Assembly: GCA_030704615.1 (NCBI GenBank)
Contig: CM060733.1
Location: 50,902,001 to 50,966,000, forward strand
Reading direction: 5' to 3'
Source: Takakia lepidozioides
Taxonomy: Eukaryota > Plantae > Bryophyta
Length of the DNA: 64,000 nt
The notes under the pieces are model-generated. The model searched no databases. It saw nothing but the letters and a program-made list of their open reading frames with translations, and was not told the DNA's origin. Below, piece after piece: positions 17,248 to 50,981 of this stretch. The position numbers and the translations under genes were made by a program. Positions within the stretch are counted from its first letter, which is position 1, and each line of letters starts with the position of its first letter.

Positions 17248-17750
17248 TGTCACGACCCTTTGCCTTGAGGGCAGGGGGTCGGGACACAAGAGGGGCTGCC
17301 CCTGTGGTGGGGGCAGTTGCAACAATAGGTACGGGGGCTGAAGCACCATTGAGTGCCTTGGGCACTCAAGGAGGCGGAGGCGCTCACTAGGCGGAGCCCC
17401 GCACACCGGGTTGCGGTGGGAGTGGTTCCACGAGGGGTGGTGGTAGCTTAGTGGGTCTTAGTGGGGGTGGCATAGGACTCACCATGGGGCAGAGACCTTG
17501 TGGTGGGAGTCATGGGGAGTCTTGGGACTCATCACAGTCCAATGGGGCCGTGGTGGGTGGGCGTGGACTCACCGCGACTCATCACCGAGAATCAAGGGTC
17601 TTGTGGAGGAGCAAATGGGGACCGTTATGTCCCGGTGAGCAGCCAAAGCTCCGAGTTGGCCCGGCAGCCAGTTTGGGAGTTAGGCGCGGGCATCAAAGCG
17701 TCAAGTAACTATGACATGAAGGGGAGCTTACCGAAGTGAGGTGCGCGATG
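17248..17750 (+). repeat. 5' LTR of the outer chromovirus
   Basis: Starts TGTCAC and is homologous to 37731-38448, but lacks a ~210-bp segment present in the 3' LTR (~38085-38310). Confidence 0.9.
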
Positions 17751-17752
17751 CT

Positions 17753-17764
17753 TGGTATCAGAGC
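17753..17764 (+). promoter_or_regulatory. Primer binding site complementary to initiator tRNA-Met
   Basis: TGGTATCAGAGC immediately after the 5' LTR. Confidence 0.9.
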
Positions 17765-17805: not shown

Positions 17806-20800
17806 ATGGGGTCGGGCAAGACAAAGCGAAAGCGGAACGGCCTGAAAGATGATGATCCTGGTGAGCCCGGTGGAGGCAACGTGTCACCGAAGCGGCAATT
17901 GGAAGAGGCGATTTATGCTTCTGAAAGCGAGGCCGCTCAAGAATAGGAGGAATCTGGGAAGTCGGAGACCGAGGACTTCCCGGAGGCTCCGGCAGATCAA
18001 CAGATGTCTCCCATGCCAGCAGCCTTTTGGGAAGGGTTGTTGGCGCAGTTTGGCGGGACGTTGAAAGACGTGATGAGAGCGGCTAATGCCACTTCCACTA
18101 AGGCAAAGTTTAAGGTGAAGCCTAAGGAACCCGGCACCTTCGAGGGCGTCCGAAATCGGAAGGCACTCAACACCTAGCTCTTGGAGCTGGAGCAGTACTT
18201 CCGGGCACTACAACAGATTCCAGCTTTACCGTCTGTGACATTTGCCCAGTCGTAGCATATATGTCTACAAAATGCAAGGGGGCAGTCCTAGTTGCCATTT
18301 GTGACCATCAGAAGTCGTATATGCCATCTCGTTCCTCCGCCACGTCAGGATCTGCGGTCAAACACGTTTGACCAGATAGGGGAAGATGGTAGATAAGACT
18401 AGGAGTCATGGCCAAAACTGCAACAGGATGACGTGGGCGTGGGAATGTATGACTGCCAGTATTCACAACTTGCACGTGGCGATTGCCGGTTGCCCAAGGA
18501 GTGTGTACGTGGACGATGCAAACATAAATGGATGAAACATATGTAGGATGTGATTGCAAATGACGACGTGTCAACATATCATTGCTCGCGGGCACTAAGC
18601 CACACCCTAAATGAATGGATGAATGAATGATTAGGATGAATTAGGACGAGTGAACTAGGATGAATTAGGATGAATGTGCTCGAATTTAAGGTTGCAGTGT
18701 TAAGTATGAGGATAATAAGTAGTAAAAATATTTAACTATTGTTTCACTGACCCAACAGATTAACAATAAAACTAATCGACTGCTGGTTAAGGTTAGTGAA
18801 ACAAAACAACTGTATTATCTCAACGAATGATACACAAATGCCTTGCTGGCAACTATCGGATTAATGTATCAAACATAACTTTTGTGCACTGGATGAACGT
18901 ATGAATGAATGATACAACAAACGCCTTGCTGGCAACTATTGGATGAACGTATGAACGAATGATAATGCAAACGCTGAGCTGACAGCAATCGGATGAACTG
19001 ACAGTGAAACTCATTTAAAGAATTATTTTGGATGAATGGATGAAATTAAAATGGCCAAAAGATGGAAAAACAAATGAATGGATGGATGTATTGATGGAAA
19101 ACCCAAAATCCATCCATCTATCGAGGATCTAATTTACATTAGAAAAATTCTATAGATTTTTGGCCAGGTCCAAAAAACTAAAACCCCTTTCCCCTTTCTG
19201 CAGCTATCCCCCCAAAAACTGCATCAAACGAAGCTCATTTGACAAAAATATGACCAACCAGGCTCTTTAAACATAACACCCTTTAAAAAAAATAAACAAA
19301 TACAAGGGAAAATGTATTTTCAATAACTTGTCTTGGCTCCCTGTTCCCTGGTTCCCTAAGAATTCCCTGGACTCATGCCTGGCTCATATCTGAAAAATAA
19401 CGATCTTAGATTCTTAACTCAATCGCTCCACAGTGGAATTACCATGATAAAGGTAATGTCTTATCATCCATCCAGTCATGAGTAGAGGGGACTTAGCGTT
19501 TTTTTGTCTCCCCTGCCATCTGTTTGTTTTCTTTGTGTCGAGTTTGATCGTGAGAGACGACAAACAGGACAGAGCTGTGTTTGCTTTCTTTTAGTGTCGA
19601 GTCTGATCATGAGAGATGTCGAACAAGACGGAGCTATGTTTGTTTTGTTTTAGGGTCGAGTCTGATCATGAGAGACGACGAGCGGAGCTGGTGGGATAGG
19701 GGGCAGACAGGGACTCAAACCCTAGAATCGGGGCATGAAGAAATCCGTCCTGTGCGAAATCATTTCCAACTCGGCATGATGCGAGGCCTCTCGTATGAGC
19801 CAAGCGAGAGGATAGGGCCTTGCGTATGGGGTGGGTGTGCAGGAGGGTATGTCTTGTGCAAATGTGTGAATTTTGCTTTGTTTGCCCTTGTTTTCTCTCA
19901 CTAAAGTCGGAAGCAGGTTTGCTCGTCTTGGTTTCAGTAAAGGAGTTGGGTTGTCATCCGTTCGAAGCGAGGCGTTGGGTTGTCAGCCGTCATTGGCAGC
20001 CGTTCGAAGCAAGGCGAGGATGTATGCGTGATGTGTGCAGAGGCTGGGATAGCTGAAGGAGCAGGGATAGAGTGTGGGTCCAGATTCATCCAATATGGCA
20101 GGATATCAAGCACGATATTATCTGTGATTCCCAGCGGATCAGAGCTACAAGAAACCTGGGCACCTTCTTCTTCGACCTATTTTAGCTTGTGTTGCCCTCT
20201 CTCCAGACTTGGCCCTAAGATGCATATTGAATGCTGTAAGTTAGCTCGATGCTTGTTGATAAGTAGGGTTGGGGGTGTCTCCAGATTACCTATGATTCAT
20301 TGTGGAAGGATAGCTAAAAGAAACCTGCATGGATAGATGGTCAACTGGAAGCCGCAGCAGCAGCGGCACAATTGATAAAATCAAACACTACTAATGAAGG
20401 TAGTGGATTGCTGAATTTCGAGAGATGTCAGTGTATGCATCTTCTGCTCAAGCCTTTGGAAGTCTACATAGACTTTGTAACTTTGTGCATTTTTGTAGCA
20501 GCACCGGATTAGATTATGGAACGGATCTTTGAACATTAAGTCACGTTGTATTTGAATCGATGTTCCAATTTCAAATGTGCTTTCATGTTTCAATGGTGTT
20601 TTCGTGTGCTTTCAATGGTGCTTTCATGTTTCAATGCTGCTAGAGTTAGGCCCATGACTACGGTCATGTACACGACTACCTCCCATCCACAGAGCCTCTG
20701 CCACGTGCCACTTTCACCCCTCGTATTCGCCCATACTCGTGCCACGTGCAGTATCTAGAGTGCGCCATGGAAGTCATATGCTCCAGTCATAACGACCACC

Positions 20801-21848
20801 CCCATCCTGCATAATTTGATTCCACGTGTTATGTCCAGTCTTCTCCACGTGTTGTCCTAGGGTTAATCTGCGGAAGTCATATGCCAGTCGTAAAGACCCT
20901 GTCGCCGTCCCTTTGACGTGACACGTGGCATATCCCTTCCGTTCCACGTGAAGCTGACATGGATTCGTAGTCATTTACTACGGTCTTATCAATGACTATG
21001 ATTAGGCGTCCCCGTTGTCACGTCATCAGTGAGCTCCACGACTGGCAGATACGACTCTATGGCGCTTACGACTCATTTGTCACAACTGACTGGGTTTATC
21101 TGACTAGGCAGTTATGCAGTCATAAAAGGCTGATACGAATGGAAAATAATAGACGTAAAAGCCGGATTTTGTTGTAGTGGGGCGGCCAAGTTGAGTGACG
21201 AGGATCGGGTGGAAGTGGCTCCCACCTATTTGAAGGGCTATGCTCAACAATGGTGGCAAAAACGCCTTCATGACCAAGGTCTAAACCCAGAAACCTTGAG
21301 CTAGAGTGGGTTCAAGGAACTTATGAAAAGACAGTTTGTGCCCCTCAATGCGTCCTGGCTCGCCCGGGACAAGATGAGCAATTTGAAGCAAATGGATGAC
21401 ATTCGGGGATATATTCAGGCTTTCAATGTGCTGTTGCTCGAAGTCGCGGATATGGCAGAACCAGAAATGGTCTTCAATTTTGTGGCAAGACTGGTCCCAT
21501 GGGCCAGGCGGAAGTTGGAGGAGAAGCCACCTAAGACTTTGAACGAGGCAATTGAAAGGGCTGAATGTTTTTCGGATGTCCCTAGGGGCAAAAGACAAGG
21601 CCGCATGGAGCTGAACCACAAGGCGGGAAGGTGACCCCTTCCGACCGGAAAAAAAGTGGGATATGCCACGCGGCGACAATGGCACATAGAAATTGAAGGG
21701 AGGGCCTTCACACGTCAAAGCGGCACTCGGTGCTCCGAAAAGAAAATCAGGTGCGGCGGCTTATGGCGGACAGAAAGCGACCTTCAATGGAGTGTGCTTT
21801 AATTGCGGGGAGCCTGGGCATATGGCCAAGAAGTGCGCGAAACCCTGA
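17806..21848 (+). pseudogene. gag: gag of the outer chromovirus, split by the CACTA insertion (17806-18205 + 21183-21848)
   Basis: KPKEPGTFEG...LEQYF, then after the insert YLKGYAQQWW, FVPLNA..ARDKM..LKQ and the zinc knuckle CFNCGEPGHMAKKC (21795-21836). Contains premature stops. Confidence 0.8.
18206..21179. mobile_element. Non-autonomous CACTA (En/Spm) DNA transposon, copy 1
   Basis: Starts CACTACAACAG and ends TTGTTGTAGTG (~29-bp imperfect TIR), 3-bp TSD GGG, GGATGAA-rich subterminal repeats, no transposase. Homologous to 49818-54055. Confidence 0.92.
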
Positions 21849-21865
21849 CAATTGAATATGACTCG

Positions 21866-21950
21866 TGTCGTGCGCATACATATCGCTACACAACTACATC
21901 GCTGTCCAAACCACACCACACATATATGCACAATAAAGTAGTCTGCCACA
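21866..21950 (-). repeat. Terminal repeat B2 (85 bp) of the inner element
   Basis: Identical to 22317-22401; TG...CA ends. Confidence 0.95.
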
Positions 21951-21960
21951 ATGGGAGGAT

Positions 21961-22314
21961 TGATAAACAAAGCTAAAAAGGACATACACTTCCAACACAA
22001 GAAATATAAAATCCATCGCTATCACTCATTGAAACTGAAGTCGAGCCAGGGGCACCCCAAGCTATGGGGACTCCACCCCACAACAACCTGTATCCCTACA
22101 TAAGCACACTAAAACCTAAACACATGCAGGAGCTCGGTCGCGCAGGCTCAACTCGAGAGAGATGAGCCACGCGACTGCCGCTCTCGTGAAGATAAGATTC
22201 AGGTGTCAAACTAAACTTGACACCTGATTTAACACTTGACCTAAATCCAAGTGTTAAATACAAATAACTAGTTTTATTCTAGTTGTTTTCACACTGTGCT
22301 TATTTAACTTGACA
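21961..22314 (-). repeat. Repeat A2 (354 bp, LTR-like) of the inner element
   Basis: Near-identical to 33001-33357; TG...CA ends. Confidence 0.95.
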
Positions 22315-22316
22315 GC

Positions 22317-22401
22317 TGTCGTGCGCATACATATCGCTACACAACTACATCGCTGTCCAAACCACACCACACATATATGCACAATAAAGTAGTCTGCCAC
22401 A
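22317..22401 (-). repeat. Repeat B1 (85 bp) of the inner element
   Basis: Identical to 21866-21950; joined to A2 through a GC dinucleotide. Confidence 0.95.
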
Positions 22402-22414
22402 ATCGCCCCCCTAG
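22402..22414 (-). promoter_or_regulatory. Polypurine-tract-like plus-strand primer of the inner element
   Basis: The minus strand reads CTAGGGGGGCGAT directly before the TG of B1. Confidence 0.7.
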
Positions 22415-22661
22415 CTGGTGGATAGGTCCCTCTAACTCCAGATAGCTACAAGATGTAATAGCCACAGCCGTACTAAGTCCTCTATCACTGTCCCTATTGT
22501 ACTCAAACTCTATAGACCAAGAGGCCGGGTACAAGAGTAGCCCCATCGTTAGTCGCCGTCTTGCAATCTGTGAACTTGAGCCAGGACCTCGTGTGTTCAA
22601 GGTCTCCTAGTAGCTGGGCCTTGCGTTTCTTGTTAGCCTTCCATGGTTGTATCCACTCCCA

Positions 22662-25600
22662 CTATCCAATGCAATGTGGACATAACCAATCCCCATCCGG
22701 AACCATCTCAAGAGGTGGAGTCAAGCATCCCATATGCCAACCTCTAGAGCATCGATCACACACCAGCATGGTGGCTGCCCCTTTAGCAGACCCACACAAC
22801 ATGCACCTCAAACCTGCAGATACCACTGCCAGGTTTGGGTCAATCCTGCCATCGACATTCGGAAGGTGACATGGCGCACAATTACGCACATGGTCCTTCC
22901 AAGTTATGCCATCCCGACCCTCCAAGACCAAGACGCCTGAGGGCAAGACCTCTCGAACCCTCAAAATAACACGTCCTGCAGTCACATCCAGGGTCGTAGG
23001 AGCAGTCTGCTGCAGATAGACATAGTCACCAGGGTTGAATCTCCGAACCCCAGGACGATAGCCCCCACCACGTATGGTAGCATACCTCAACGTATCACGG
23101 TGTTGTGCAATGGCAAGGTTCTCGAAAGCCATGGGCATGACTCTCTTGAACAACTCTGCACGCTGCTCACATGCACGTGCCCACACGTCCGGATCGTCAA
23201 GGTTAAGAACTGTAGCAGCTTCTCTGCGAATGGATGTAGGCAAATCCGGCTCTCGGCCAAAGAGAAGAAAGTATGGTGAGAAGGAGGCAAGTGATGCTTG
23301 CTTGCTGAACCTGTAGCCCATGGCTAACCAGGGTAACTGAAGGTCCCAATCTCCTAGGTGTCCCTTCTGCAAGCCATACTTGCGCAAACCCCTCTTTACT
23401 GTCTGAACAACTCTCTCTGCCAAGCCATCGGCTTCAGGATGATCCCGAGAAGTGGTGCGGTGGTCTATCAAGGCCTTGTCACACAAAGCCTGAAACTCCC
23501 CCAAGAACTCTCTCCCTTGGTCCGTGAGTACCTCAGCTGGAGCACCGAATCGGCTAAGCACACAATCCAGGAATGCATACGCAGCTCCCTCACTAGCCTT
23601 ATCAGGCAATGGAACCAATTCAATCCACTTGGAGAAGTGCTCCACCATCACCAACACGTACTTGTTGTGGCGCATGGTCAGTGGCAACGGCCCTGCGAAG
23701 TCAAGACTCCACCTGTAGCCCAATCCCATGATCGGAAGAGGGTGCAATTGTGGAGTAGGGGCGTTGAATGAAGCACGCACCCTGTCACACACCATGCACC
23801 TAGCCACAAATTGTTGCACCTCTGTGTGCATACCACGCCACCAATACTGCCCCTGCAGTAGACTATGAGTGCGTCGCACCCCAAAATGCCCCAACTCCTC
23901 ATGGGCATGCCGCACTAACCGTGCCCGCTGTGTTGGGTGAGGCACAATCCTCACTCGACCATCCTCCCACACTCGGAGCAGGTGTGTCCCCTCCCACTTG
24001 AACCTCTTGGCTCGTTGTAGGATCCGATCCCTCTCCTTGGCAGTCATAGTGGCTGCCGTGTCTCCACTGCGGAGGTAGTCCAACACAACTGAATCCTCAT
24101 GTATATCTTTGGCGCCACCCTGCTCATTGCTGGCCTCAGGGTCCTCAGACACTTGATCTACAGTCATCCCTGTTGTAGGTCCAACCTGGCCTTCCGCTGC
24201 CAAGATACACAGAAATGCAGATGCATGCCATCCGGGCACCATCTCCTCGTCCGTCTCACCATGCCACCGAGCTCCAGTGTCATCCTGCTGGCTCGTGCAT
24301 GGATTGCGACTCAACCCATCTGCATTTCGATTGACCAAACCCGGTCGATGCACCACCTGAAAGTCATACTCTTGAAGGATGAGTGCCCACCGTGCAAGCT
24401 TCCCCGTAAGCTTGTCTGACTCCATCAACCACTTGAGTGGTTGGTGATCCGTGACAAGGGTGAAGAGATTGCCGTATAGATAGCACCTGAAGTGTGCCAC
24501 GGCCCACACTGCAGCTAAGCATTCTCCCTCATATGAGCTATACTTAGACTCTGCAGCATTGTTCGAGCGGCTAGCATAAGCCACTACGAACTCTCTTCCC
24601 TCATCATCCACCTGTGTGAGCACCGCTCCAAGCCCCAGCATGCTCCAATCTGTATGCAGCTGAAAAGGACGCCCCCTGATAGGTCGTCTCAAGATGGGCG
24701 CCGAGGTCAACCTCGCCTTGAGCTCTTGAAAAGCTTGTTCTTGCTCATCTTCCCACTGCCACTCCTGGTCCACCTTGGTCAGCTTGGTTAGAGCCTTTGC
24801 AATGGCACTAAATCCCTTAACAAACCGTCTGTAATAGTTTGCTAACCCCATGAAAGCTCGAACTCGGCTCACATCCGTGGGGCGTGGAACCTGTGCAATG
24901 GACTCTACCTTAGTCTGCTGTACCCCCAATCCTCCAGGATATATCATGTGACCCAGATACTCAATCTGGTTGTGGAAAAACTTGCACTTGCCCGGATGTA
25001 ACTTCAATCCGTGCGTCCTCAAGCGCTCAAATACCCCCTGAAGGTGTCTCTCATGCTCCTCCACCGTAGCACTAAAGATGATGATGTCATCTATGTAGCA
25101 CCGAGCAAACTCCACCCCTGCTAGAATCCTGTCCATGACTCTTTGAAACTCAGCGGGAGCGTTTTTAAGCCCAAATGGTAAGAACCGCCACTGGTATAGG
25201 CAATCCTTCCCGTGCTCATTGATCCCCCAGAATGCCGTCTTTTGCTTATCCGCCTCCTTGATCGGCAACTGGTGATATCCGGATCGTAAATCCAACGTGC
25301 TAAAGACCTTGGAATGCCCAATGGCATCAAAGATCTCCTCTGGTGTTGGCATGGCATACCTATCGGACTTGGTCTGACGATTTACAGGCCGGTAATCACC
25401 GCACATACGTCTCTCCGTCCAATTGCCATAGACATCCTTCTTAGCTGGCATCACTGTGGCTGAAGCATACTCTCCACCAGAGAGCTCCACCAAACCTGCC
25501 TCCCAGAGATCTTGAGTCCTCATCTGAATCAAAGACCTCTCCATGTCACTGTATCTATAGGGTCTCCGAAAGATTGGCGTGTCAGTGGCCAACTCAATAC

Positions 25601-25796
25601 GGATCTCTTGACCCTTCAGTGCTCCCAAGTCCTTCAAACTGAAGGCAAAGCAATTCCTGTAAGCCCTCAGGAACCGCCGTATACGTCGTCTCTCTCCTCC
25701 GGTGACAATGGGTCCAATGTCAGGCTCCCAATTGTCCTCCGTAACTGCAACCTTAAGTCCAGTGGGCTTAGAGGTAGAGGACGCGTCCCGTGGTTG
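22662..25796 (-). CDS. pol: Pol: reverse transcriptase - RNase H - DDE integrase - C-terminal PHD finger (open frame starts right after the TAG at 25797-25799)
   Basis: RT motifs LDLRSGYHQ, LPFGLKNAP and YIDD; RNase H LHTDWS, ECLA, TDH; integrase H-H-C-C plus SLDFAG, TDQGREF, GLAER; PHD C4HC3 CMLC..CDRC..WHMGC..WLCPHC. Confidence 0.95.
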   Translation of the reverse strand, partial: QPRDASSTSKPTGLKVAVTEDNWEPDIGPIVTGGERRRIRRFLRAYRNCFAFSLKDLGALKGQEIRIELATDTPIFRRPYRYSDMERSLIQMRTQDLWEAGLVELSGGEYASATVMPAKKDVYGNWTERRMCGDYRPVNRQTKSDRYAMPTPEEIFDAIGHSKVFSTLDLRSGYHQLPIKEADKQKTAFWGINEHGKDCLYQWRFLPFGLKNAPAEFQRVMDRILAGVEFARCYIDDIIIFSATVEEHERHLQGVFERLRTHGLKLHPGKCKFFHNQIEYLGHMIYPGGLGVQQTKVESIAQVPRPTDVSRVRAFMGLANYYRRFVKGFSAIAKALTKLTKVDQEWQWEDEQEQAFQELKARLTSAPILRRPIRGRPFQLHTDWSMLGLGAVLTQVDDEGREFVVAYASRSNNAAESKYSSYEGECLAAVWAVAHFRCYLYGNLFTLVTDHQPLKWLMESDKLTGKLARWALILQEYDFQVVHRPGLVNRNADGLSRNPCTSQQDDTGARWHGETDEEMVPGWHASAFLCILAAEGQVGPTTGMTVDQVSEDPEASNEQGGAKDIHEDSVVLDYLRSGDTAATMTAKERDRILQRAKRFKWEGTHLLRVWEDGRVRIVPHPTQRARLVRHAHEELGHFGVRRTHSLLQGQYWWRGMHTEVQQFVARCMVCDRVRASFNAPTPQLHPLPIMGLGYRWSLDFAGPLPLTMRHNKYVLVMVEHFSKWIELVPLPDKASEGAAYAFLDCVLSRFGAPAEVLTDQGREFLGEFQALCDKALIDHRTTSRDHPEADGLAERVVQTVKRGLRKYGLQKGHLGDWDLQLPWLAMGYRFSKQASLASFSPYFLLFGREPDLPTSIRREAATVLNLDDPDVWARACEQRAELFKRVMPMAFENLAIAQHRDTLRYATIRGGGYRPGVRRFNPGDYVYLQQTAPTTLDVTAGRVILRVREVLPSGVLVLEGRDGITWKDHVRNCAPCHLPNVDGRIDPNLAVVSAGLRCMLCGSAKGAATMLVCDRCSRGWHMGCLTPPLEMVPDGDWLCPHCIG

Positions 25797-27446
25797 CTAT
25801 GCTGCAACCTCTTGAGCAGTACCCCCTTCCTGCTCAGTCAATGACAAGGCCTCATCCTGCCCCATCATCTCATCATTGAGAACCTCCTCATCCCGAGAAG
25901 AATCCCCAACCTCATCCATCACAGCTGCCTTCGCTGCCAACTCCCTCTGAACCTCGAGCACCTCCCACATGTGCCATGGATGTCTACACCTCGTGGTCCT
26001 CACCGGCTCGCCCCCACTCGCTGCCTGTACCGTCTCGGTAGGCAGAGAGACCATCAAGGGAAGTGCACTCCGCACTCTACGTTGCTCAGCCATAGCCAAG
26101 CTGACAATCCAGGTCAAGCAATTGAGATCCATTGCTTGCCCCAACACCTGACGACGTGATGCCTCAGAAAGAGAAGGCACCGCCGTGGTCCCAGTGGAAA
26201 ACCCCATAGCCCGCTCTCGCTCGTCGGCATTAGGCTCCACTAACTGCTGCAACTGAGCATCCCACAGGAGGCCAGGTCCACCATCCCGAAAAGCATGGGA
26301 TCCTGGGAAGCTGAGCAGTGTAGGTAATGCTGCTCGTGGTTGACCCACTCTGTTGACCACTGCCAAAGGCGAACGGTCATCGTGTCTCACACGTTGAGAC
26401 TGCCTTCCTGTGTCCAAAATGCCATCCACGGTGAGGTGTGCTGGCCGCTGCACCCCATCAAATGCACGCTTGAGCAGTGCGGGTGGCATCAAGTTAGTCC
26501 ACCATAGTCGTGGACGATGAGCCCGTGACCCCACTGCAGCTGCATCCAGCAATACTGCTGACCCAAGCCACGACCGGACTTGATGCACACTGGCCATCAC
26601 CCTGGCCCGAGAATCACCCATCAGTGGCACATTCTCCAAGATGTATGCCGGAGATACAGCCTGATGAAGCTGCAAGTGGCGCAAAATCCGCACCATCTCC
26701 CAAAACAGACCCGTCCTCGAGTCTCGCAATCCATTGCCATGCCCGGCTGATGAATGCCCTTGGCAGGGCCAACCTGCCACTACCAGATCAATGGAGCCAA
26801 CCCGCTCCAAATCCTGCGCCCCCAGCAACGAAATGTCTGCTGGCAAGGCCTGCTGATATCCACGAACTGCAGACACCTGCAACAACTCAGGGTGCTGCTG
26901 CACCATCTGAGCAACATGGCGCAGTGAGACGCGTCGTGCAGTCTCATCCCTCTCCACATACAGGTAACGTCGAACTCGTACACCTGCCTGCAGCACTGCA
27001 GCCAATCCAGTGCTGATCCCGCCAAACAAGTCCAGAAGGCATATGCCTTCATCCGGTCGCTGCCACACAAGAGGTGTGGTGTCCAATGGCGACAACTGAG
27101 GTGGCCCTGGTACAATCACCGCACTCTCCTCCTCTCCTGACGGTACAAAAGCTTCTACCCAAGCTTGTTGCACCCGTCCATCAGCAGCGTGCTGCAAATC
27201 CTTGCTCGTACCCCACAACGGAGTGTGAGCAACCATGGCAGGCAACTCCGCCGTACCATGCATGTCATCCTGCTCTGCTGGAGGTGGCACATCCTCTGCA
27301 TAGGCATTGCCTTCCAGCAACTCTCCAGGCCAACTGACTGCAGCTGTGAAGGCGGCTAGTGTTGGCATCTTGCCCCGCTGGCAGCTGCAATACCCCCAAT
27401 GAATGTCACAGGGAGCTGTGCACGGCGACCATCCCCTGACTGCCAT
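25797..27446 (-). CDS. C5 DNA cytosine methyltransferase domain (DNMT3-like, non-permuted) inside the retrotransposon polyprotein region
   Basis: Motif I LDLFGGIS, II YVE, III DI, IV VAGWPCQGHS (catalytic Cys), V GLFWE, VI ILENV, VIII AHRPRLWWTN, IX ERERAMGF and X RRQVLGQAM, in canonical I-X order. Confidence 0.93.
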   Translation of the reverse strand: MAVRGWSPCTAPCDIHWGYCSCQRGKMPTLAAFTAAVSWPGELLEGNAYAEDVPPPAEQDDMHGTAELPAMVAHTPLWGTSKDLQHAADGRVQQAWVEAFVPSGEEESAVIVPGPPQLSPLDTTPLVWQRPDEGICLLDLFGGISTGLAAVLQAGVRVRRYLYVERDETARRVSLRHVAQMVQQHPELLQVSAVRGYQQALPADISLLGAQDLERVGSIDLVVAGWPCQGHSSAGHGNGLRDSRTGLFWEMVRILRHLQLHQAVSPAYILENVPLMGDSRARVMASVHQVRSWLGSAVLLDAAAVGSRAHRPRLWWTNLMPPALLKRAFDGVQRPAHLTVDGILDTGRQSQRVRHDDRSPLAVVNRVGQPRAALPTLLSFPGSHAFRDGGPGLLWDAQLQQLVEPNADERERAMGFSTGTTAVPSLSEASRRQVLGQAMDLNCLTWIVSLAMAEQRRVRSALPLMVSLPTETVQAASGGEPVRTTRCRHPWHMWEVLEVQRELAAKAAVMDEVGDSSRDEEVLNDEMMGQDEALSLTEQEGGTAQEVAA

Positions 27447-28760
27447 CCAGGCCTGTAGGATGCTGACTCCTCCCAGAAATCCAGGGTGAAGCCCATGGGG
27501 TATAACACTGCCCCACCAACGAGGACATCGTAAGAGACCGCGTCTGTCACAATGGCCTTGGCTCGCATCACTGAGCCATCTACAGGATGATCCGGCTGCA
27601 GTCTAATAGCCAACTGATGCCGTGTCATGCCGCGAGCCTGCTCTGATCCTCCCAGAGATGTCTGTATCTGGAAAGGACAAGGCTCCATATCCGCCTCCAT
27701 GAGGCCCAAACCTGCAATAGCAGCTCTGCCCAACATCAGTGGCTGAGCTCCTGAGTCCAACAAGACCCGCAGTGGCCGGTACTTCTTGCTTGCCGGTCCA
27801 CTCAAAGTGAAAATGCCTCCCTGGTTGTCTAACAAGACAACTCCAGGTGTCACCATGGCGCGCTCAATGGCTGGCCTAGCTGGCAGCTCCGTCAATCTGG
27901 CAGCTGCAGCTTGCCAGGGCGCTGCCGTGGCAGTCTTGACCCTCAAATCCGAGGATCCCTCTGCCACTACACCTTCCACTAACTCCGCAGAAGATGAAGT
28001 GACCTCTTGACTCTCGCAGAGTGTTGCTGCTAGTCTGAACACTGCAGCTGGTCTCACTCCCGGCGTCGCAATCATGGTTGCCGAGAACAATGGGGCTTGA
28101 CACACAGAGGTGGCTGCCCCCAATAACACACCGGCCGTACTAGCCTTGGCAGCAGGAGTCAATGCTGCACGTGTAGCTCTCCCCAATGGCATAGTAACCT
28201 CCGCCTCGGTAACAGTCGGGCGAGAACTAGGTGCCATGGATGGCGTTGACACTGTCTCCGCCAAGGTGAATGACTGAGGCAGCCTTGCCTGGCGGCTTGC
28301 CTCCCCACGTTGTGGATCCAACTCCACCTCTGCACCTCGTGGCTCAGGAACTCGTGTTGCTCCTCGAGTCACGGCTGCAGCAGACTCCACCTGCTCTAAT
28401 GGTAGTGCTGCTCCGCACATAAATCCCATGCCTCCCATATCTCCTCCCTCAGGAGCAGGAGGTGGACCATCCCGCCTGGGAGCCGGTACCGCCTGAGCTA
28501 TAGTCATGGCAGCGAGCCTCTGCTCTAGCTGCTGAAGCCGGTTGGCCATGCCTTGATCAACGCCCTGACCTCCACGTCCTTGGCCATGTTGAGCTTGCCC
28601 TTGGCCTGCACCTCGTGCCCGACCACCTCGTCCTCTTTGGGCTGGTCCACCTCGCCCCCGGCCACCATTGTTCCCTTGGAACTGGCCTGGGCGCAACTCA
28701 GGATGCAAGTCATAACACTGGGCATCTCCATGCCCATATTGCCACAATGCCCACACTGCA
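27356..28760 (-). CDS. Gag C-terminal G/R/Q-rich region and aspartic protease of the inner element
   Basis: Second half of a zinc knuckle (YGHGDAQC), RGG-rich stretch, protease active site VLLDSGAQPL and downstream YDVLVG. Confidence 0.8.
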
Positions 28761-29996
28761 ACTGTGCAGGCTGTGCTTGTGCCGGCCTTCTGCCACTCTC
28801 TGGGCAATCTCTCTTGACATGGGGTCCTCCACATGTCCAACATATCACCCCTGGTTGCTGTTGGCCTGCAAAAGATGCCACGGGCCTTGCACCTGAGGCC
28901 CCCTGTAAGCTCCATGGAACTTGGGCTGGGCAACCTTGCCCCCCTGACCACGCTGTTGGGCAGTCCCTTGTGCTTGTGGGCTGACAACTGTGCCCCGTAC
29001 AGGCATGTCCTTGCCAAATCCAATTGTAACAACTCGTTCCTCCACCATGTTGAGCTCAATCCGCTCAGCCAGCAGAAACACATCTGCTAATGTGGGTTGG
29101 GCTGCTTGTAACAGGGTTGCATCTCGCACCCTTCTCTTGAGCTCCTTGTCCAGAATTCCATACCAAAACTGGATTGCCTGAGCTTCAGTAACCCCTTGGG
29201 TCACACTTATCAAGCGCCTCATACGAGTGTACGCCTCTCGCAGGCTCTCACTGGGTTTGCGCTGGAAGTCTTGCAAACTTCGCAGCTTCTCTGTCCGTAC
29301 ACCTTGGTAGTTCCTTCGCAACTCCTGGAAGAACTCCACCACCGGGTTGAATCTAGGCACATGGGTTGTAGCTGTGGCAGGAGGAGTAGTAGCACCTTCT
29401 GAACTGGTACCACCTGCAGAAGTACCAGCACTACCTGCTCCACTACTAGTGCTGGCAGTGGGAGCTATTGGTACTGATGCAGCTACTGGTCGCGTCATGC
29501 CTCGAGTAATGGAGATGTAGTCAGGTGACCAATACATCCTCCACTCCTCAATCTCTGCTTCATGTCCTCGCCTGAACTCGTGGTAATCGTCCATAGGCGG
29601 GCCTTCCAAATGCTGGAACAGTCCCTTCCACGCCATGAATGGGGTGAATAGATGTGGATTGCGCATCTGCTGCAAATCACACCAGCTGTCGAACTCCTGG
29701 ATAAAGTCATCCAACTCGATTGTGCCCACAGCTCCAGAGTACCTACGAGGCCCCTTGGTAGCTCCATACATCTCCTCCATGTCGTCCCACAACAATGGCG
29801 AATGAAAGTGCACACCTGTTGATGAAGCCTCCGAGCCTGTGTCTGACTCTACAGTAATTGAGGGTGGCGGTGAAGGTGGTCTGAACCGAATACCTCTTCT
29901 TGTGAACCCACTCTCACTGTTACTGCCTGTAGCCGTACTCCCCTCAAAACCCTTGGGTAACTCCGTAATGACACTCACAATGTGCACCTCCTCCAC
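28740..29996 (-). CDS. gag: Gag (capsid plus zinc knuckles) of the inner element, broken by 1-nt frameshifts; first in-frame ATG at 29780
   Basis: Retrotrans_gag-like LQDFQRKPSESLREAYTRM...AIQFWYGIL; the knuckles CWTCGGPHVKRDC and CGHCG/xYGHGDAQC continue in successive frames. Confidence 0.8.
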
Positions 29997-30515
29997 GTGA
30001 CACTATAAGGTTCTAGTACTAATCTAATAGTGACACGGGTGGGCACCTGTTGCAGTCTAAGGGTCATATCCCAATGGCTCAGGGCACCTGCACCTGCATC
30101 CACCGCAAGAACTCCTATGGTTGGCTGGTCATCAACCCAGCCTCACCATAGAAGAAACACTGGTGGTCTTGCTGGTCATCACTCCAGCCTCACCACCGAC
30201 AGCATACTCTAGGATTGACCGGTGATCAAATCCGGCCTAATCCCTATGAAAGCAAGCGCCCACACAAAACCAACATGGCGCACAGTCAAGCATGCAGGTG
30301 TTGGGGGGGATCCAAACACAAGAAATCAAAACATCAACACCCCCACACCAAAATCCAGCAGCAACGCTGATCCTGCAGAATATCCCAGCCCAAAACCCCG
30401 GACTGACTGGCCTCCACCAAGAGAGGCTTTGGCAACTACAAGTATAAGGTAATGAAAATAGTACAGAGATGGAGGGGAAGAATAGAAGCCCGACCAAGCA
30501 AGATCTAATCCTGAT

Positions 30516-31265
30516 CTATGCTATCAACTGCCAGACTTCTCTCAAAGTGCCTCGCTCTGCATGATGGTAAGGTGTAGGAGGTATATCTATGTCCAGAAAC
30601 CTGCCACTAACCTTGTCCCAAGCTACAGTAGCTCGCTCTAACCAACCCTCCTCCTCTTTCTGCCAGGTAGAGACAAAGCAATACTCCCCTATCTCCCGCT
30701 CACTGAACACTAAAGAAAACAAAGGTAGGGTCTGATAGTCTCTCAACTCGAAAGCTTTGAGACGGTTGCGGGTGTCCTCATTGCGAATGACTGCATCTCC
30801 TTCACGCACAACAAACATGTCATTGCTGATGAACCCCCGCTCATGGTTGCCCTGTGCAGAGCGTATCCGGCTGCAACCATGTCTGATTGCACAAACTTGT
30901 GTAGCTCCTGCTCCTCTGCTCCAGTACACCACGGCCTTGTGACTGAAAACCTTGGTCCCCGGGGCTGTCTTTGGCTGTGTTCCAAGCCTAGCTTTCACCC
31001 ACTTTGGTATTTCACCTACAGCTGCAGAACTGCTGGCTCCAACAGAGTTCTGACTGTCCAAGGCAATATTGAGGCCCTCAATGCCAACTACAGCAGTCTG
31101 TTGTCTACTGCTAATGCCTGACTCCCAGTATGCAATCAACTCGTCCAACTGTTCTCCACTCAAATCAGTCTGAGTTCCTTGGGAAACATAAATCCTGTCC
31201 CCTTGTGTGCACAGGCTAAGAGAAGAGACCTGCCCTTCAATTACGTCCTCATTTCCCCCAGCCAT
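30516..31265 (-). CDS. Extra 249-aa ORF upstream of gag in the inner element, function unknown
   Basis: Intact ATG-initiated ORF on the element's sense strand within the 3-kb leader; no recognisable motif. Confidence 0.55.
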   Translation of the reverse strand: MAGGNEDVIEGQVSSLSLCTQGDRIYVSQGTQTDLSGEQLDELIAYWESGISSRQQTAVVGIEGLNIALDSQNSVGASSSAAVGEIPKWVKARLGTQPKTAPGTKVFSHKAVVYWSRGAGATQVCAIRHGCSRIRSAQGNHERGFISNDMFVVREGDAVIRNEDTRNRLKAFELRDYQTLPLFSLVFSEREIGEYCFVSTWQKEEEGWLERATVAWDKVSGRFLDIDIPPTPYHHAERGTLREVWQLIA

Positions 31266-32983
31266 GCAAGGAGTACATCCACAGATTTGTCTCTCATATA
31301 GACCAGCACAGGTTCTAGAGACAGGATTGTGGATCTTTTATGGCCCACTCACACTCTAAAAATTCCATAGATTTTTAGCAGAGTCCCAAAAACAGAAACC
31401 AGGTCTAGGTAGGTAGATTTCCCCTTTCTGCAGCTATCCCCCCAAAAACTGAGTCAAACAGAGCCCATATGACAAAGATATGACCAATTAGGCTCTAAAT
31501 CATTCGAATTAGATCAAAAAGGCTTTTTTTTTTTTTTTTTAACACCAAAACGTTCTCGCCATTAAAAACTGTTCCCATGTTATCTACGGGTTGATCTGTC
31601 GGATAAGTGATATCCACACTTGTGCCCTCCGTTCCCTGCAGGTTCCCGATTTTCCATCTGAACAGCCCGTCTCGAGTTCTCCACACATGGGCGGGTCTTG
31701 GGGAATTACGATGAATACAATGGCACGCTGAAGCTCAGCAGCAGGTAGACAATGTGTCCATTAATGTAAAGAGCCTGGCAGATCGACAGTTTGAAACGAT
31801 CAATGCTTCATCTCCTGTTATGCCATTCGCATCAGCCTGCCGTAGATTGTCTGTCAACCAATATCCGAGTTCAATTGTCCAAGCAGAAATCTACTAGAAA
31901 TCTACCAACCGGCTACTGATTCCATAAATACTGGCAACTCCCATTCTGGATCTGTACTCAATGGATCAGTATAGAGTGGCTGCCCTTAGGGCGCGCTTCA
32001 TCCCAACCAGGGTAATCTGCACTGAAGCCGAGATGACACTTGAAGCGGCTGCTTCCACAATGCTCCCTCTTTGGTGCATTCATCGTGCTAATCTAGCACT
32101 GCCCAAACCACGCCACAAACTCTCGTTGGTGCAGGAAATATGGCTGCCGCATTGCAGGTCTCGGGTCAGGCTCTCCATATCCTAGGCGTGCATATTGCTG
32201 CTGATATTGGGGCTGCCTTCAAATTGACTGCCAATAGGCCCGAACCTTAATTGCGCACTTGCTAGAAAATCTAGCCTGACCCCGTCCATCCATTTGCTTG
32301 CTTCCTCGCGATGTGCAGCCAGACAACCTCACATCAACCAGCCCACAACCACTCCTTCATGGTGGCTGGACTATAGTCGCACACCGACTTCCCACCCATT
32401 GCTAGTAACCATTCCACATGAAAGCCAACGACGGCACAATCTGCCTTCATGCCAGCCTGTCCCTCCTCGCTGACCAAGAAAACCAACGATAGCCAGCCAA
32501 CTTCTCAACTCGGCCTTTACTGATTGCACACCCTGATATATGCCATGAACAACTTCACCAAATCGTTTGTCATCAGTACCGATATACCATTGGGACGACG
32601 ACTTGTAGACATGAGCCCATCAACCAGTCCAACACCTTGGCTGCTCACTATGTGCAGGTCTGAAACCATCAGTCTGCTCAGGAATTACCTATAGCATGGT
32701 ATTTTTATCTCTGCAGCTGAAGTCGAAGACCACGGTCCACCCACTCGCGTAACCAGCTGCACCTCCGCTTCTAACCACCAAGACAATGAAGGCTTGCATC
32801 CCAGCCTTGCGAGACAACAATAATGCTGATCGTTTCACCATGCTCGGCTCTCAATCTGCCGCTCAGCCAGTGACCGTTAAAAGGGAGAATACCCATGCAC
32901 TTTTGTGTTACCGCTTTCAACACACACAAAATCCACAAGTGCTAAAAACTAATTAAGCTCACATCTTGCACTCACAGATGCAA

Positions 32984-33001
32984 GCTCAATCTCTCTCGAG
33001 T
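32984..33001 (-). promoter_or_regulatory. Self-complementary primer binding site of the inner element
   Basis: No TGG/tRNA PBS. The sequence is a 13-nt perfect (17-nt with one bulge) reverse complement of 33191-33207 inside repeat A1. Confidence 0.7.
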
Positions 33002-33357
33002 GATAAACAAAGCTAAAAAGGACATACACTTCCAACACAAGAAATATAAAATCCATCGCTATCACTCATTGAAACTGAAGTCGAGCCAGGGGCACCCCAA
33101 GCTATGGGGACTCCACCCCACAACAACCTGTATCCCTACATAAGCACACTAAAACCTAAACACATGCAGGAGCTCGGTCGCGCAGGCTCAACTCGAGAGA
33201 GATGAGCCACGCGACCGCCGCTCTCGTGAAGATAAGGCCATTCAGGTGTCAAACTAAACTTGACACCTGATTTAACACTTGACCTAAATCCAAGTGTTAA
33301 ATACAAATAACTAGTTTTATTCTAGTTGTTTTCACACTGTGCTTATTTAACTTGACA
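33001..33357 (-). repeat. Repeat A1 (357 bp, 5' LTR-like) of the inner element
   Basis: Near-identical to 21961-22314; starts TGTCAAG on the minus strand and is flanked by the TSD. Confidence 0.95.
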
Positions 33358-33447
33358 CTCGGGTGACCACAGAGCTATCCGAAGATTCCATCAGCCGCTT
33401 GGTGGAAACGGTGGTCGCCAAGACTTGTAAGGTATGAAACTACTCTT

Positions 33448-36400
33448 ATGAGTCAACTGTACCAGGAGACTGGCCCCTTGCGTAAAGGGAGTCAGTTAAT
33501 GTTCGTGAGTGGGATAATTTCCGAGACTAACGTGTCGTTGTTGGTGGTTACAGGAGCATTGCACTCCTTCATGACACTGACAACGGCACGGAAGCTGGGG
33601 CTCCCGACAGGTGATGTGGGGGCCTCTATTGAAGTGCGTTCTGCCAAAAAAAAACCACAACTGGCGACGAGGTTGGCATTCGATGTTCCTCTTCAGCTCG
33701 GGGGTTGGGAGGGACGTGAGAACTTCACCATTTGCGAGATCGATGGAGTGGATCTCATTTTGGGGATTACCTTTTTGAGCAAATCCGGAGCGGTCATAGA
33801 TGGCCGCAAGATAATAGTCACGCTACCATGTCGAAATGGTGGTGAAGTTTTACGGATATAAAAAACGCCCAACCGAGTGGGAAGGTGAATGAACCTGCTG
33901 ACAGCAAATGAGTGGGCAGTAGAGGAGCCACACTGGCCCCAGTTTTTGCTTTACGTAAGACAAATGGAAGGAGAAGTTGATAGGGAGCCTAGCCCAGATT
34001 GGATCAAGGGGATCCTGGAGAAATACCAGGATGTGATGTCGGAGGATTTACCAAGCAGCTTGCCACCGCGAAGAGGAGTTGACCACAAGATAGAGGTGAT
34101 ACCGGGATCGGAGCCGCCTGCCAAGGCGCCCTACCGGTTGAGCCACAGAGAGTTGGTCGAACTGAAGGCCCAACTCAAGGATCTAATGTCAAAGGGGTAC
34201 ATCCGGCCGAGTAAGTTACCTTACGGAGCCCCGGTGCTATTCGCAGACAAGAAGGATAGGACGTTGCGGATGTGTGTCGATTACAGGGCTCTGAATAAGG
34301 TGACTATAAACAACCGGTACCCTTTGCCAAAGATCGACGACCTCTTCGATTAATTGGTTGGCAGGAGCAAAGTATGTCAGCCGGATCGATTTACGCTCAG
34401 GTTACCATCAAATCCGAGTGGCGGAAGGAGATTAGGAGAAGACCGCGTGCAGGACAAGATATGGTTCATATGAGTTTTTGGTGATGCCTTTTGGGCTCAC
34501 CAACGCACCCCACGACCTTTAGCACGCTAATGAACAGCCTTTTCCAGGAGTGGTTGGATGACTTTGTGATCGTGTACATCGACGACATCTTGGTGTACTC
34601 AAAAACAAAGGAATAGCACCTGGAGCACCTCAAAAGGGTGTTCCAAAAATTGCGGGAAGGGAAGCTGTATGCCAAAGCTTCAAAGTGCGAATTCGGGGTC
34701 ATAAAAGTGGAGTTCCTAAGTCATGTGATTACACAGGATGGGATCAAAATGGATGACAGGAAGGTGAGGGCGATCTTGGACTGGGAGCCTTCGACTTCGG
34801 TCCTGGGAGTGCGATCCTTCCTAGGACTCGCCTCCTATTACCGAAAGTATGTGAGAAATTTCGCCAAGATCGCGGGGCCGCTGTCAGACCTTCTGTGTAA
34901 GTCCAAGGTATGGGTATGAAACACATTTTGTGGCCAAACTTTTGCCGAGTTGAAGCAGCAGATGGCGGAAGCTCCAGTCCTAAAAATCCCAGAGTTCGAC
35001 CGTCCATTTGAGATTCATACAGATGCGTCGGACTTCGCAATTGGGGGTGTACTCATGCAGGATAGACGTCCAGTGACGTACGAAAGTAAGAAATTGAATG
35101 AAGTAGAGCGACGGTGGCCTACACACAAGAAAGAAATGAAGGTGGTGGTGCATTGCCTTGAGCTTTGGCGCCACCATGTTGGTTCCAACCCGGTGACGGT
35201 TTTCACGGACAATATCACGGTGAAGTATTTTGCCACACAGCCTAAGTTGTCCCCAAAATAACTGAGGTGACAAGATACTTTGGCAGTGTTTAACCTGGAT
35301 ATCCAGTACAAACCGGGACATGACAATGTGGTGGCCGATGCTTTAAGTAGAAAGCAGCAGCTCATGTTGGTGTACAGGGGCGAGACGGCGCTCCAAAGGA
35401 AGATCTGGAAGGCTTACCGGAAGGATGACATGGCGAAGTCCATGATGCAGGACTTGAGGTTGGGGGTTAAATCGCAGTTCCACTTGCACAGTGGACTGCT
35501 CCGGTACAAGCAAAAGCGTCTCCACGTGCCGAAGGGAGGGATTAGAGATAGTCTCTTGAGAGAATGTCATGATGGCCCGCTTGCGGGCCACGGCGGAGCC
35601 AAGCGTACCGCGACACTCTTGAAGAAAAGAGTATTTCTGGCCCAAACTGAGGGAGGAGGCCGAGGAGTATGTCAAGACATGCACCACATGCCAACAAAAC
35701 CGGAGCGAGTACAAAAAGCAAGCGGGGCTGTTACAACCCTTGCCGATTCCAGAGGGGTCTTGGGAAAGTGTCTCGATGGATTTCATGACTGCTATATCGT
35801 TGTCAAAAAAATTCAATGCAATCACGGTGGTGGTGGATAGGTTCAGTAAAATGGGCCATTTTATTCCTACCAAGAAGACGGCAACGGCGCAGGAGACGAG
35901 GCGACTTTACTTCGCCCACGTCTTCAAGCATCATGGACTCCCGAAGGATATTGTTTCGGACCGCAACCCAAAGTTTACAAGTAAATTTTAAAGGGCACTT
36001 TGGAAGAAAATGGGGACGAGACTCAAGATGAGAATCGCCTTCCGACCTACAATGGACGGCCAAACAGAAAGAGTGAATTCCGTGGTGAAGCAGATCTTGC
36101 GAAATTATATGTCGGCAGACCAGTCAAACTGGGTGGAGTACTTGGATGCGGCAAAGTTCTGTTATAATAACACAAAACACTCCGCAACGGGAGTTTCCCC
36201 TTTCGTATTGGTCTATGGAAAAGCACATCTGGTGTCGACAAGTTGGGCCGCCTAGGACGTTGATGAACCGGCAGTAGTAGCGGTACTGGAAAAACGCGAG
36301 CGTTTGTTGGAGCTCGCAAAATACAACATTGCCAAAGCTAGGAAACGGTATGAACGGCAGGCGAATCGGAAGCGGAGGAAAGTTAAGTTTGAGGCAGACA

Positions 36401-36845
36401 CGGAGGTCTGGTTGAACATCAAGAATTTTCGACTACCTCTGGAAGTGAGTCCGAAGTTCGTACCTCCGTATGCGGGGCCCCTTTTTGCATCCGGAAGATT
36501 ATGAATGAAGATGTGTATGAATTGGAGCTGCCGGCAAACAGCAAGGTACATCCGGTATTCCACGTTTCTTTTTTGAAGCCTTACTTCAAAGATGAAGCGC
36601 GTCCAAATCGGCATCAAGTGTTGCGTCCGCCACCTACGCTGTTGGATCATGAAAATGAACCTAAGTACGAAGTGGAGGCAGTGCTTAAGTCGAGGAGGTT
36701 CAAGAATCGATAAACGAAGTATCTCGTGAAATGGAAGGGCTATCATCAAGTGGAGGCAACTTGGGTGCATGCCTCAGAAATGGGAAATGCATCTGAGGTG
36801 GTTGTAGCTTTCGAAGGACGACCTCAAAAGCGGAAGAAGTGTTGA
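33448..36845 (+). pseudogene. pol: pol of the outer chromovirus: PR-RT-RH-INT-chromodomain, multiply disrupted
   Basis: [28 protein letters not shown] (~34575), HTDASDFAIGGVL, SMDF, SDRNPKFTS, DGQTER, GPF, HPVFHVSFLKP, and chromodomain YEVEAVL...YLVKWKGY...ATW (36660-36815). Confidence 0.9.
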
Positions 36846-37730: not shown

Positions 37731-38448
37731 TGTCGCGGCCCTTTGCCTTTAGGGCAAGGGGTCCGGACACAGAGGGGCTGCCCCTGTGGTGGGGGTAGAG
37801 GCAACAATAGGTACGGGGGCTGAAGCACCATTGAGTGCCCAAGGCACTCAAGGAGGCGGAGGCGTTCACTAGGTGGAGCCCCGCACACCGGGTTGCGGTG
37901 GGGGTGGTTCCACGAGGGGTGGTGATAGTTCAGTGGGTCTTAGTGGGGGTGGCATAGGACTCGCCATGGGGCAGAGACCTTGTGGTGGGAGTCGTGGGGA
38001 GTCTTGGGACTCATCACGGTCCAATGGGGCCGTGGTGGGTGGGCCAAGACTCACCGCGACTCATCACCGGGAATCAAGGGTCTTCGTGGTGGTTCGCCAT
38101 AAAATGACTGGGTTGTTTGTGAAACCCCCGCAGACAGTCACAGAAACATATATAGGGAGTAGTAACCCCGAGAACGGTGCAAGCTCGTTGGTGACCAAAA
38201 ATTAGTGAGTAAGTATGTGAGCCGGAAAGCGACCAAGGTGTGGGGAGCTGTTCTAGACTGCCAACAACCAAAGGGAATTTCCACTAGGCCCAAAGTGAGC
38301 GAGGGTCGTGTGAAGCAAATGGGGACTGTTATGTCATGAGCAACCGAAGCTCCATGTTGGCCCGGCGGCCAGTTTGGGAGTTAGGTGCGCGCATCAAAGC
38401 GAGTAATTATGACATGAAGAGGAGCTTACCGAAGTGAGGTGCGCGACT
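37731..38448 (+). repeat. 3' LTR of the outer chromovirus
   Basis: Homologous to 17248-17750 and followed by TSD TGGAA. Confidence 0.9.
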
Positions 38449-38954
38449 TGGAACCAATAGTTCTCCAGACCACTTGAAGCTATTATCTGTACCACCACTC
38501 AGAGGAAGCACAAGCCAGATAGTGAAAATCCACCTAGGTCTTCCCGAGTTGATGTTGCTTTGTAACTTGCAGTGTTGTGCTAAAGGTTGGGCCCTATATG
38601 AACATTTGCAAGAATTGTGCAAGGAAAACATAGTGCGGCTCAATCAGAACTGGACCTCAATGACCACAAGTTGAGATCAAGCTTCTTTGAGTATGTAAAC
38701 CTTACTAAAATAATTGATCATCTCAAAAAGTTGTTGAAGAGCCAACGACAAACTTCAACAAGCGTGGCAGTCTCCAATTGGGGTAGCAAAGCATCTGCCG
38801 GAGCCCGCTTAAATGGAAATAACAGATATCGTGACACTACATCAAATACCTTCTATGCCTGCATTCGGGTCCAAACACCTCTACTTAGGCTACATGTCAA
38901 GGTCACAACCACATCTAACAATTAACCTTCATGGTTGCAATGACAATTGTGAAA

Positions 38955-50872: not shown

Positions 50873-50981
50873 ATGGACTCAAACCCTCGAATTGGGGCAT
50901 GAAGATGTGGTGCACGATGTGGCCATCGACTACTATGGGAAGCGGCTAGCCACCTTCACGATGGACAATCGCAGTCGCAAG
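50873..50981 (+). pseudogene. SEC13: Captured SEC13 5' exon fragment
   Basis: TQTLELGHEDVVHDVAIDYYGKRLAT is the SEC13 N-terminal WD40 signature; followed by a GT donor. Confidence 0.8.

Follow-up and report, generated by a model that had tools for sequence, protein, structure and literature searches.

A Ty3/Gypsy-type retrotransposon with a PHD-tipped integrase, a DNMT3-like methyltransferase domain and a putatively leaky stop codon between them

An 11.5-kb retrotransposon of the Ty3/Gypsy type, equipped with a PHD-tipped integrase and a DNMT3-like domain, occupies positions 21866-33357 on the minus strand of the window, the whole 64,000-nucleotide stretch of DNA that was analysed. Read 5' to 3', it comprises a repeat that we designate A1, a 5' region with an accessory open reading frame (ORF), gag, protease, the DNMT domain, an in-frame TAG, a frame for reverse transcriptase (RT), RNase H, integrase and PHD, a purine run, a second repeat, B1, two bases, A2 and B2. 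The published description of KnitGypsy-Dnmt3 matches this element, and the two are very probably relatives. We further propose, with confidence slightly better than even, that a lineage-wide PHD tethers integration, that the DNMT is made with Gag upstream of a leaky stop and that the integrase uses an attachment site inside the long terminal repeat (LTR).

The frame that encodes RT, RNase H, integrase, an SH3-like C-terminal domain and the PHD (22665..25796, minus strand) is open over 1,044 amino acids and was delineated by translation, Pfam and predicted structure. Within it, all on the minus strand, are the RT motif YIDD at 25097, RNase H at 24659 and the integrase HHCC motif at 23903, followed by two Asp residues in the regions of 23708 and 23528 and a Glu in the region of 23423. 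Pfam recognises RT, RNase H, integrase H2C2, rve and PHD, and the structure predicted for the integrase part matches those of the foamy virus and Ty3 integrases. Gag was assigned to 28848..30002 (minus strand) from a Retrotrans_gag match that lies below the cutoff (E=0.001) and that recurs at the same place in related loci; an overlapping frame (27359..29086, minus strand) holds the end of gag and the aspartic protease, the latter recognised by eye from LDSGA at 27760, with no Pfam match. The order protease-RT-RNase H-integrase, the HHCC and DDE motifs, the TG...CA ends, the polypurine tract and the short target duplication are all those of Ty3/Gypsy elements. Two identical terminal LTRs with a tRNA primer site are absent: the ends are A and B-A-B, and no TGG follows A1. 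Pfam detected no tyrosine recombinase family and no DAM or Chromo domain among the scanned ORFs of the element.

The accessory ORF of approximately 249 amino acids that lies 5' of gag (30519..31265, minus strand) belongs to an unnamed protein family, with 25 relatives at E<=0.001 (best 1e-37) that are mostly 200-240 amino acids long and of which none has a Pfam or PDB match. The ORF itself likewise has no Pfam or PDB match, and it was not found in 80 related loci. Between A1 and this ORF (approximately 31590-32990), contig depth, which is not a measure of copy number, falls far below that of the rest of the element, with loose ends at both borders; no long ORF is present there, and other copies seem to carry different sequence in this interval. 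The window copy is young and frameshifted. The insertion is taken to be young because A1 and A2 differ by one substitution and one 3-bp indel and B1 and B2 by nothing (87 of 87 bases identical); the stretch from gag to DNMT contains two frame changes, one near 28.7 kb and the other near 27.4 kb, and in the related locus L031 the domains from gag to DNMT share one frame.

The PHD finger (22671..22805, minus strand) stands at the C terminus of the integrase, two residues before the ORF stop at 22662-22664, and the full C4HC3 signature reported in the first-pass annotation, CMLC-x11-CDRC-x4-H-x2-C-LTPPLEMVPDGDWLCPHC, is present as written; Pfam places the domain at amino acids 998-1042 of the 1,044-residue frame (E=2.5e-10). 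The same annotation had located the finger where chromoviruses carry their chromodomain, and this is borne out, as the PHD ends the integrase ORF and is the only domain that Pfam reports after the integrase. Homologs of the integrase and PHD number 299 proteins, and a Pfam PHD is found in 119 of the 120 listed, a proportion that overstates the PHD fraction because the query itself contained the PHD. Named sources among the matches listed are Haematococcus, Volvox, Chromochloris, Coleochaete and Marchantia, and the earlier guess that PHD-integrase fusions are general in non-seed-plant lineages agrees with this spread from chlorophytes to Marchantia. Acquisition of the PHD by chance or by recent capture of a host gene was ruled out, the PHD being clade-wide. 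The DNMT has 74 homologs, for which the named sources are Calypogeia (75% identical), Marchantia, Riccia, Sphagnum, Closterium and Chromochloris; Klebsormidium is not among the named homologs. One annotated Marchantia gene, Mp7g09570 (P0014), combines a protease, a partial DNMT, a partial integrase and a PHD of the same element family and is likely to be a deleted element annotated as a gene.

Two layouts were encountered in this set, with the DNMT either before RT or between RNase H and integrase, and in a quick, unrooted integrase tree these fall mainly on two branches with SH-aLRT values of 94 and 84; the tree gives no root because the chromovirus outgroup forms a long, unreliable branch. 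Of the 119 tree rows, 37 have the RT-RNaseH-DNMT-integrase-PHD layout, and most of these sit on a single branch with Haematococcus, Volvox and Chromochloris; proteins of this layout (P0046, P0054, P0073, P0117 and others) usually carry 100-400 extra residues after the PHD. Pooled dN/dS values obtained against related loci, which are largely near-copies, were 0.06 for the integrase, 0.07 for RNase H, 0.13 for the DNMT and 0.25 for the PHD, with RT saturated; the PHD is thus the least constrained domain measured and is nonetheless under purifying selection.

All eight zinc ligands of the PHD are invariant in an 85-row alignment, and the nearest solved single domains in the PDB are the PHD1 fingers of KDM5B and KDM5A and those of ATXR5, DPF3 and CHD4. 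In a separate sub-branch (P0053, P0068, P0079, P0080, P0085 and P0091), His replaces the last Cys of the finger. Residue counts were made on the 112 strict C4HC3 matches among the 120 listed homologs: the cage position is never Trp or another aromatic residue (Gly in 106, Ala in 4 and Pro in 2), 106 retain the R2-binding Asp that follows the third Cys, and 101 retain the Trp of the Pro-x-Gly-x-Trp A1 pocket. In KDM5A, D312, which contacts R2 and is essential, and W335, which contacts A1, are key residues for H3 binding (bioRxiv 10.1101/715474, PMC5415848, available portions). When the finger is mapped onto KDM5A numbering, a mapping that is our own, the positions of D292, E305 and D306 are occupied by Ala in the window PHD and that of D315 by Ser, and the acidic wall formed by the equivalents of E305 and D306 is found in none of the 14 closest homologs, compared with 59 of 104 others. 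According to the same portions of those sources, loss of acids weakens H3 binding in BAZ2A/B and KDM5A, and removal of the acidic wall lowers BAZ2A binding 17-fold. The PHD is therefore likely, as judged from its residues, to bind the free H3 tip (A1-R2), and its preference for a K4 methylation state is uncertain: with the acids that touch H3K4 in KDM5A and BAZ2 missing from the finger, its sequence does not imply specificity for unmodified K4. The claim that this is an H3K4me0 reader accordingly holds for the missing cage Trp and the retained A1 and R2 residues and fails at the K4-contacting acids. We suggest that the PHD would tether integration to nucleosomes through the free N terminus of histone H3, by way of A1-R2. 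It is conceivable that the PHD of this clade has ceased to read histones and has taken on a different partner (nucleic acid, a protein of the element or some other host factor) or assists integrase folding; its mean net charge (+1.3 in the close clade versus -2.2 in the rest) and its constraint (dN/dS of 0.25 versus 0.06 for the integrase) would suit such a role, but the finger has kept both the Pro-x-Gly-x-Trp pocket and the surface Asp that follows the third Cys, which correspond to the H3 A1 and R2 contacts of KDM5A, and we consider this explanation quite unlikely.

The DNMT3-like C5 methyltransferase domain (26073..27065, minus strand) lies in a frame (25800-27602) immediately upstream of the RT-integrase-PHD ORF and matches PF00145 at 5e-13. 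Motifs I (LFGG), IV (GWPCQ), VI (ENV), VIII (RPRLWW) and X (LGQAM) follow one another unpermuted, the catalytic PC and the ENV are intact in the window copy and, across homologs, GWPCQ is found in 39 and ENV in 46 of 56 rows. DNMT3A is both the best PDB match by sequence (9e-10) and the best fold for the predicted structure (pLDDT 95; TM 0.72/0.84). The dN/dS of 0.13, a value pooled over 36 loci with dS near saturation, lies below the Ka/Ks of 0.2 that served as the criterion for KnitGypsy-Dnmt3. The Klebsormidium nitens DNMT was inactive in yeast, a result that its authors call inconclusive in the available text (de Mendoza et al. 2018, PMC5890265). CpG depletion was dropped as a sign of self-methylation, as it is no stronger in the element (CpG ratio 0.53) than in host ORFs (0.30-0.36) or, at the related locus L073, than in the adjoining chromovirus (0.52 versus 0.50).

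In the window copy, DNMT and RT share one frame and are parted by a TAG followed by CAA CCA (25791..25799, minus strand); this sequence fits UAG-CAR-YYA, the tobamovirus readthrough motif, and the same fit is found in L031, L037 and L003. Twenty-eight loci contain both the end of the DNMT and the start of RT, 21 with the linker in frame and 7 with it out of frame, counts that, like all our locus counts, are not independent because the related loci are mostly near-copies of one family. Every one of the 21 in-frame linkers contains a stop (20 TAG and 1 TAA), located 56-62 codons before the RT anchor and followed by CAA or CAG, against a background of 1.5% stops per codon elsewhere. A frame-free search located TAR-CAR upstream of 35 of 42 RT starts, in L031 this stop is the sole one in 2,341 codons, and a Calypogeia protein terminates at the equivalent place. 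A decay mutation at 25797 was ruled out by this conservation across families. The more distant proteins P0016, P0020 and P0179 are without the stop, and RNA structure 3' of it is weak (z=-2.05). In the largest related family the stop is followed by CAA-CCC-ATG, which is not a strict CAR-YYA and which allows for reinitiation; the first Met of the window RT frame is amino acid 86, with none between the stop and the RT domain, and readthrough is favoured for this reason. The stop is thus likely to be leaky and the methylase likely to go with Gag, apart from the PHD. Ribosomes would stop after Gag-protease-DNMT and, at a low rate, read through into RT-RNaseH-integrase-PHD; with the former as the presumed main product, the particle would contain much of the methylase, and the DNMT3-like domain, probably made with Gag, could methylate the cDNA of the element itself.

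The element is inserted in a decayed plus-strand chromovirus, the gag of which (21305-21865, zinc knuckle at 21795) lies on one side and the protease-RT-RNase H-integrase-chromodomain part (33358..36842) on the other, so that the insertion falls between the zinc knuckle and the protease at 33538; the host element has a Chromo match at E=2e-12 and many stops. The 4-bp target-site duplication CGAG occurs at 21862..21865 (minus strand) and again at 33358-33361. Insertion into a silenced retrotransposon had been claimed, and the nesting stands, with CGAG on both sides; the word "silenced" is read from decay. One nested insertion does not show targeting. A flank survey of 14 distinct B-A-B sites, confined to frames of at least 62 amino acids within 3 kb downstream (122 frames), placed 5 sites beside TE-coding sequence, 2 beside host-gene fragments and 7 beside no recognisable feature, raw counts that speak neither for nor against an insertion preference; some insertions lie approximately 1 kb from host gene fragments. 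Elsewhere in the window, long repeats of 75-95% identity surround the host chromovirus (18205-21179 with 49817-54055, and 17248-17755 with 37731-38451), a 53-bp tandem array lies at 49015-49514, and host-like ORFs resemble TOD1/MUCI70 (611-1141, plus strand), a RING finger protein (10377-11315, plus strand) and a Lines-like protein (46111-47580, plus strand), with a weak Uma2 endonuclease-like match at 38955-39557 (minus strand). The Lines-like protein has 9 matches, at 31-40% identity, of which 3 carry moss names, and the host is accordingly likely to be a seedless land plant.

These observations bear on the notion that the PHD reads H3K4me0 specifically, guides insertion towards silent chromatin and is tied functionally to the DNMT in the manner of the ADD domain in DNMT3A. 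The finger has no cage Trp, its nearest solved relatives read unmodified H3, the window copy is nested in a decayed chromovirus, and approximately 40 homologs of the other branch, many of which keep the K4-site acids, encode the DNMT directly before the integrase in one ORF. Set against this are the absence of the K4-contacting acids from the present clade, the insertions close to host gene fragments and the conserved stop, on account of which DNMT and PHD would belong to two products made in unequal amounts; we consider such a reader unlikely. The first-pass view that the element unites a chromatin reader with a methylation writer survives to the extent that both domains reside in one element and both are under purifying selection (0.25 for the PHD and 0.13 for the DNMT), and an ADD-like pairing is not the simplest reading, given that the conserved stop parts the DNMT from RT-integrase-PHD. 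Tethering through the H3 tip, with the DNMT made alongside Gag, remains our preferred reading.

The repeats, all on the minus strand, are arranged as A-ORFs-B-A-B. A1 (33001..33357) forms the 5' end and has TG...CA termini; near the other end, a polypurine-tract-like run (22406..22412) just precedes the 87-bp B1 (22317..22403), which meets A2 (21961..22314) at a CA-GC-TG junction (22313..22318), and B2 (21866..21952) forms the 3' end, separated from A2 by 8 extra bases. The same order is complete in L003, L009, L010, L025 and L064, and among the ends located with two reference repeat pairs, 15 distinct ones run B-A-B and 18 finish at B1. Eight related loci retain both ends; in 6 of these, two A...B copies among them, the element stands between exact 4-bp duplications, and of the remaining two, one has a duplication mismatch and one a damaged A. 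The B/A junction conforms to RACA-NN-TRTC in 28 of 58 loci, distant families included and always with a 2-nt spacer, compared with 2.4% of shuffles. No tRNA-type primer site follows A. In L045 (3246-3878), L046 and L078, B-A is followed by the sequence usual after 5' A and then by an inverted partial A, an arrangement that is either a tandem junction or an assembly artefact.

With the purine run placed just before B, the LTR would consist of B+A, and the ends are those expected if such an LTR were opened at a CA-NN-TG site in its interior; the junction at 22313..22318 would be the attachment site. Reverse transcription would produce a normal B+A LTR that starts after the polypurine tract, and the integrase would cut the CA-NN-TG site within it, a staggered cut after each CA leaving the usual processed ends; foamy virus integrase, in the account available, cuts palindromic LTR-LTR junctions. 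An internal cut of this kind would convert a two-LTR circle into A...B-A-B and a one-LTR circle or linear DNA into A...B. Random opening of two-LTR circles also predicts A-B-A...B copies, however, and none of the 11 distinct 5' ends is A-B-A, while A...B copies could arise from B1-B2 recombination as well. Replication might instead resemble that of PAT/Ngaro elements, with B2 inherited through RNA, the internal B1/A2 junction serving only to template the ends and no two-LTR circle formed. The repeat order is that of tyrosine-recombinase elements, and such a scheme would accommodate the missing A-B-A...B copies, the want of a tRNA-type primer site after A1 and an A2/B2 joint that in most copies is a single base; it accords poorly with the polypurine-like run, which precedes B1 even in distant families, and with the variability of the joint, as end-joined circles would give, at which the 8 bases of the window copy compare with 21 extra bases in L025 that end in bases otherwise found only before B1. 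We regard PAT/Ngaro-like replication as rather improbable and favour opening of the LTR at its internal site.

Taken at its widest, the analysis leads to a tentative proposal that we hold to be possible and no stronger: an unrecognised Gypsy lineage of chlorophytes, charophytes, liverworts and mosses may combine an integrase-borne histone-tail reader with a DNMT3, its streptophyte branch producing the methylase at Gag level by means of a leaky stop, packaging it and pre-methylating the cDNA, and integrating by a CA-NN-TG cut inside the LTR of circular cDNA and not at the LTR tips. Methylase-carrying Gypsy elements have so far been described from one alga, and since chromatin and methylation have been mapped in Marchantia and Sphagnum, the relatives found there render PHD-guided targeting and self-methylation testable. 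If the proposal is true, the opening of an internal LTR site by a DDE integrase would constitute a second integration route for LTR elements and would explain the DIRS-like repeats left unexplained in 2018. In bryophyte annotations, such elements additionally raise the apparent number of DNMT3 and PHD genes.

Each part of the element has precedents. The finger resembles those of KDM5A/KDM5B (PHD1), ATXR5 and BAZ2A/B in its A1 pocket, its R2 Asp and the absence of an aromatic cage; unlike them, in this clade it has neither the acidic wall nor the Asp that precedes the first Cys, and the second acid for R2 is missing too. PHD fingers are common accessory domains of retroelements such as CR1, Chlamys Penelope-like elements (PLEs) and REM1, notably in Chlamydomonas (PMC8557442, PMC6673714, bioRxiv 10.1101/2021.11.30.470311), and the portions of these accounts available describe no PHD on the integrase of a DNMT3-bearing Gypsy element. 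Chromoviruses likewise carry a reader at the integrase C terminus, as the host element does, but theirs is a chromodomain in place of the PHD, and the split repeats and the DNMT are further differences. PAT/Ngaro and SymbioDIRS-Dnmt3 share the A-ORFs-B-A-B repeats and, in SymbioDIRS, a DNMT3 (PMC7192593, PMC5890265, in part), whereas these are tyrosine-recombinase elements and the window element has a DDE integrase and 4-bp target duplications, with no recombinase found. Identity with Troyka was ruled out, this being an animal group with 3-bp duplications whose description contains neither "PHD" nor "plant". According to an opinion paper, land plants such as tracheophytes have no transposon methylases (PMC6338049).

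The combination of PHD and DNMT3 had been singled out in the first-pass annotation as the notable part, and this needs qualification: it is clade-wide and undescribed in the literature searched, but DNMT3-Gypsy elements have been published and a preprint reports LTR elements with a reader and a DNMT. These EpiLTRs pair a chromatin reader with a cytosine methyltransferase (bioRxiv 10.64898/2026.05.21.726589, in part); their reader is a chromodomain, they have a DAM domain as well and their DNMT is sister to DNMT4, whereas the window element has a PHD and a DNMT3-like domain, and the preprint treats streptophyte Gypsy-DNMT3 elements as separate. Our literature search, on which Repbase, theses and supplements may bear, located no account of the PHD-DNMT3-Gypsy combination, the stop, the junction or the spread in bryophytes; each part is known by itself, and what appears to be undescribed is their combination across the clade, together with the likely leaky stop and the internal attachment site. 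The closest known system is KnitGypsy-Dnmt3 of K. nitens, for which Gypsy domains, a DNMT3-like domain under purifying selection and a DIRS-like repeat order were reported (de Mendoza et al. 2018, PMC5890265, available text), the acquisition of the DNMT being placed there in the K. nitens lineage. "PHD" does not occur in that text or in three supplement files, the latter being a weak indication as "KnitGypsy" is missing from them too, and the text is likewise without the stop, the target duplications and the junction; the window element has all four. The likeness, which is one of description and not of sequence, lies in the Gypsy and DNMT3-like domains and the A-ORFs-B-A-B repeats; the present element departs from the published text in that a stop cuts the DNMT off from RT and in having relatives in Calypogeia, Marchantia, Riccia, Sphagnum, Closterium and chlorophytes.
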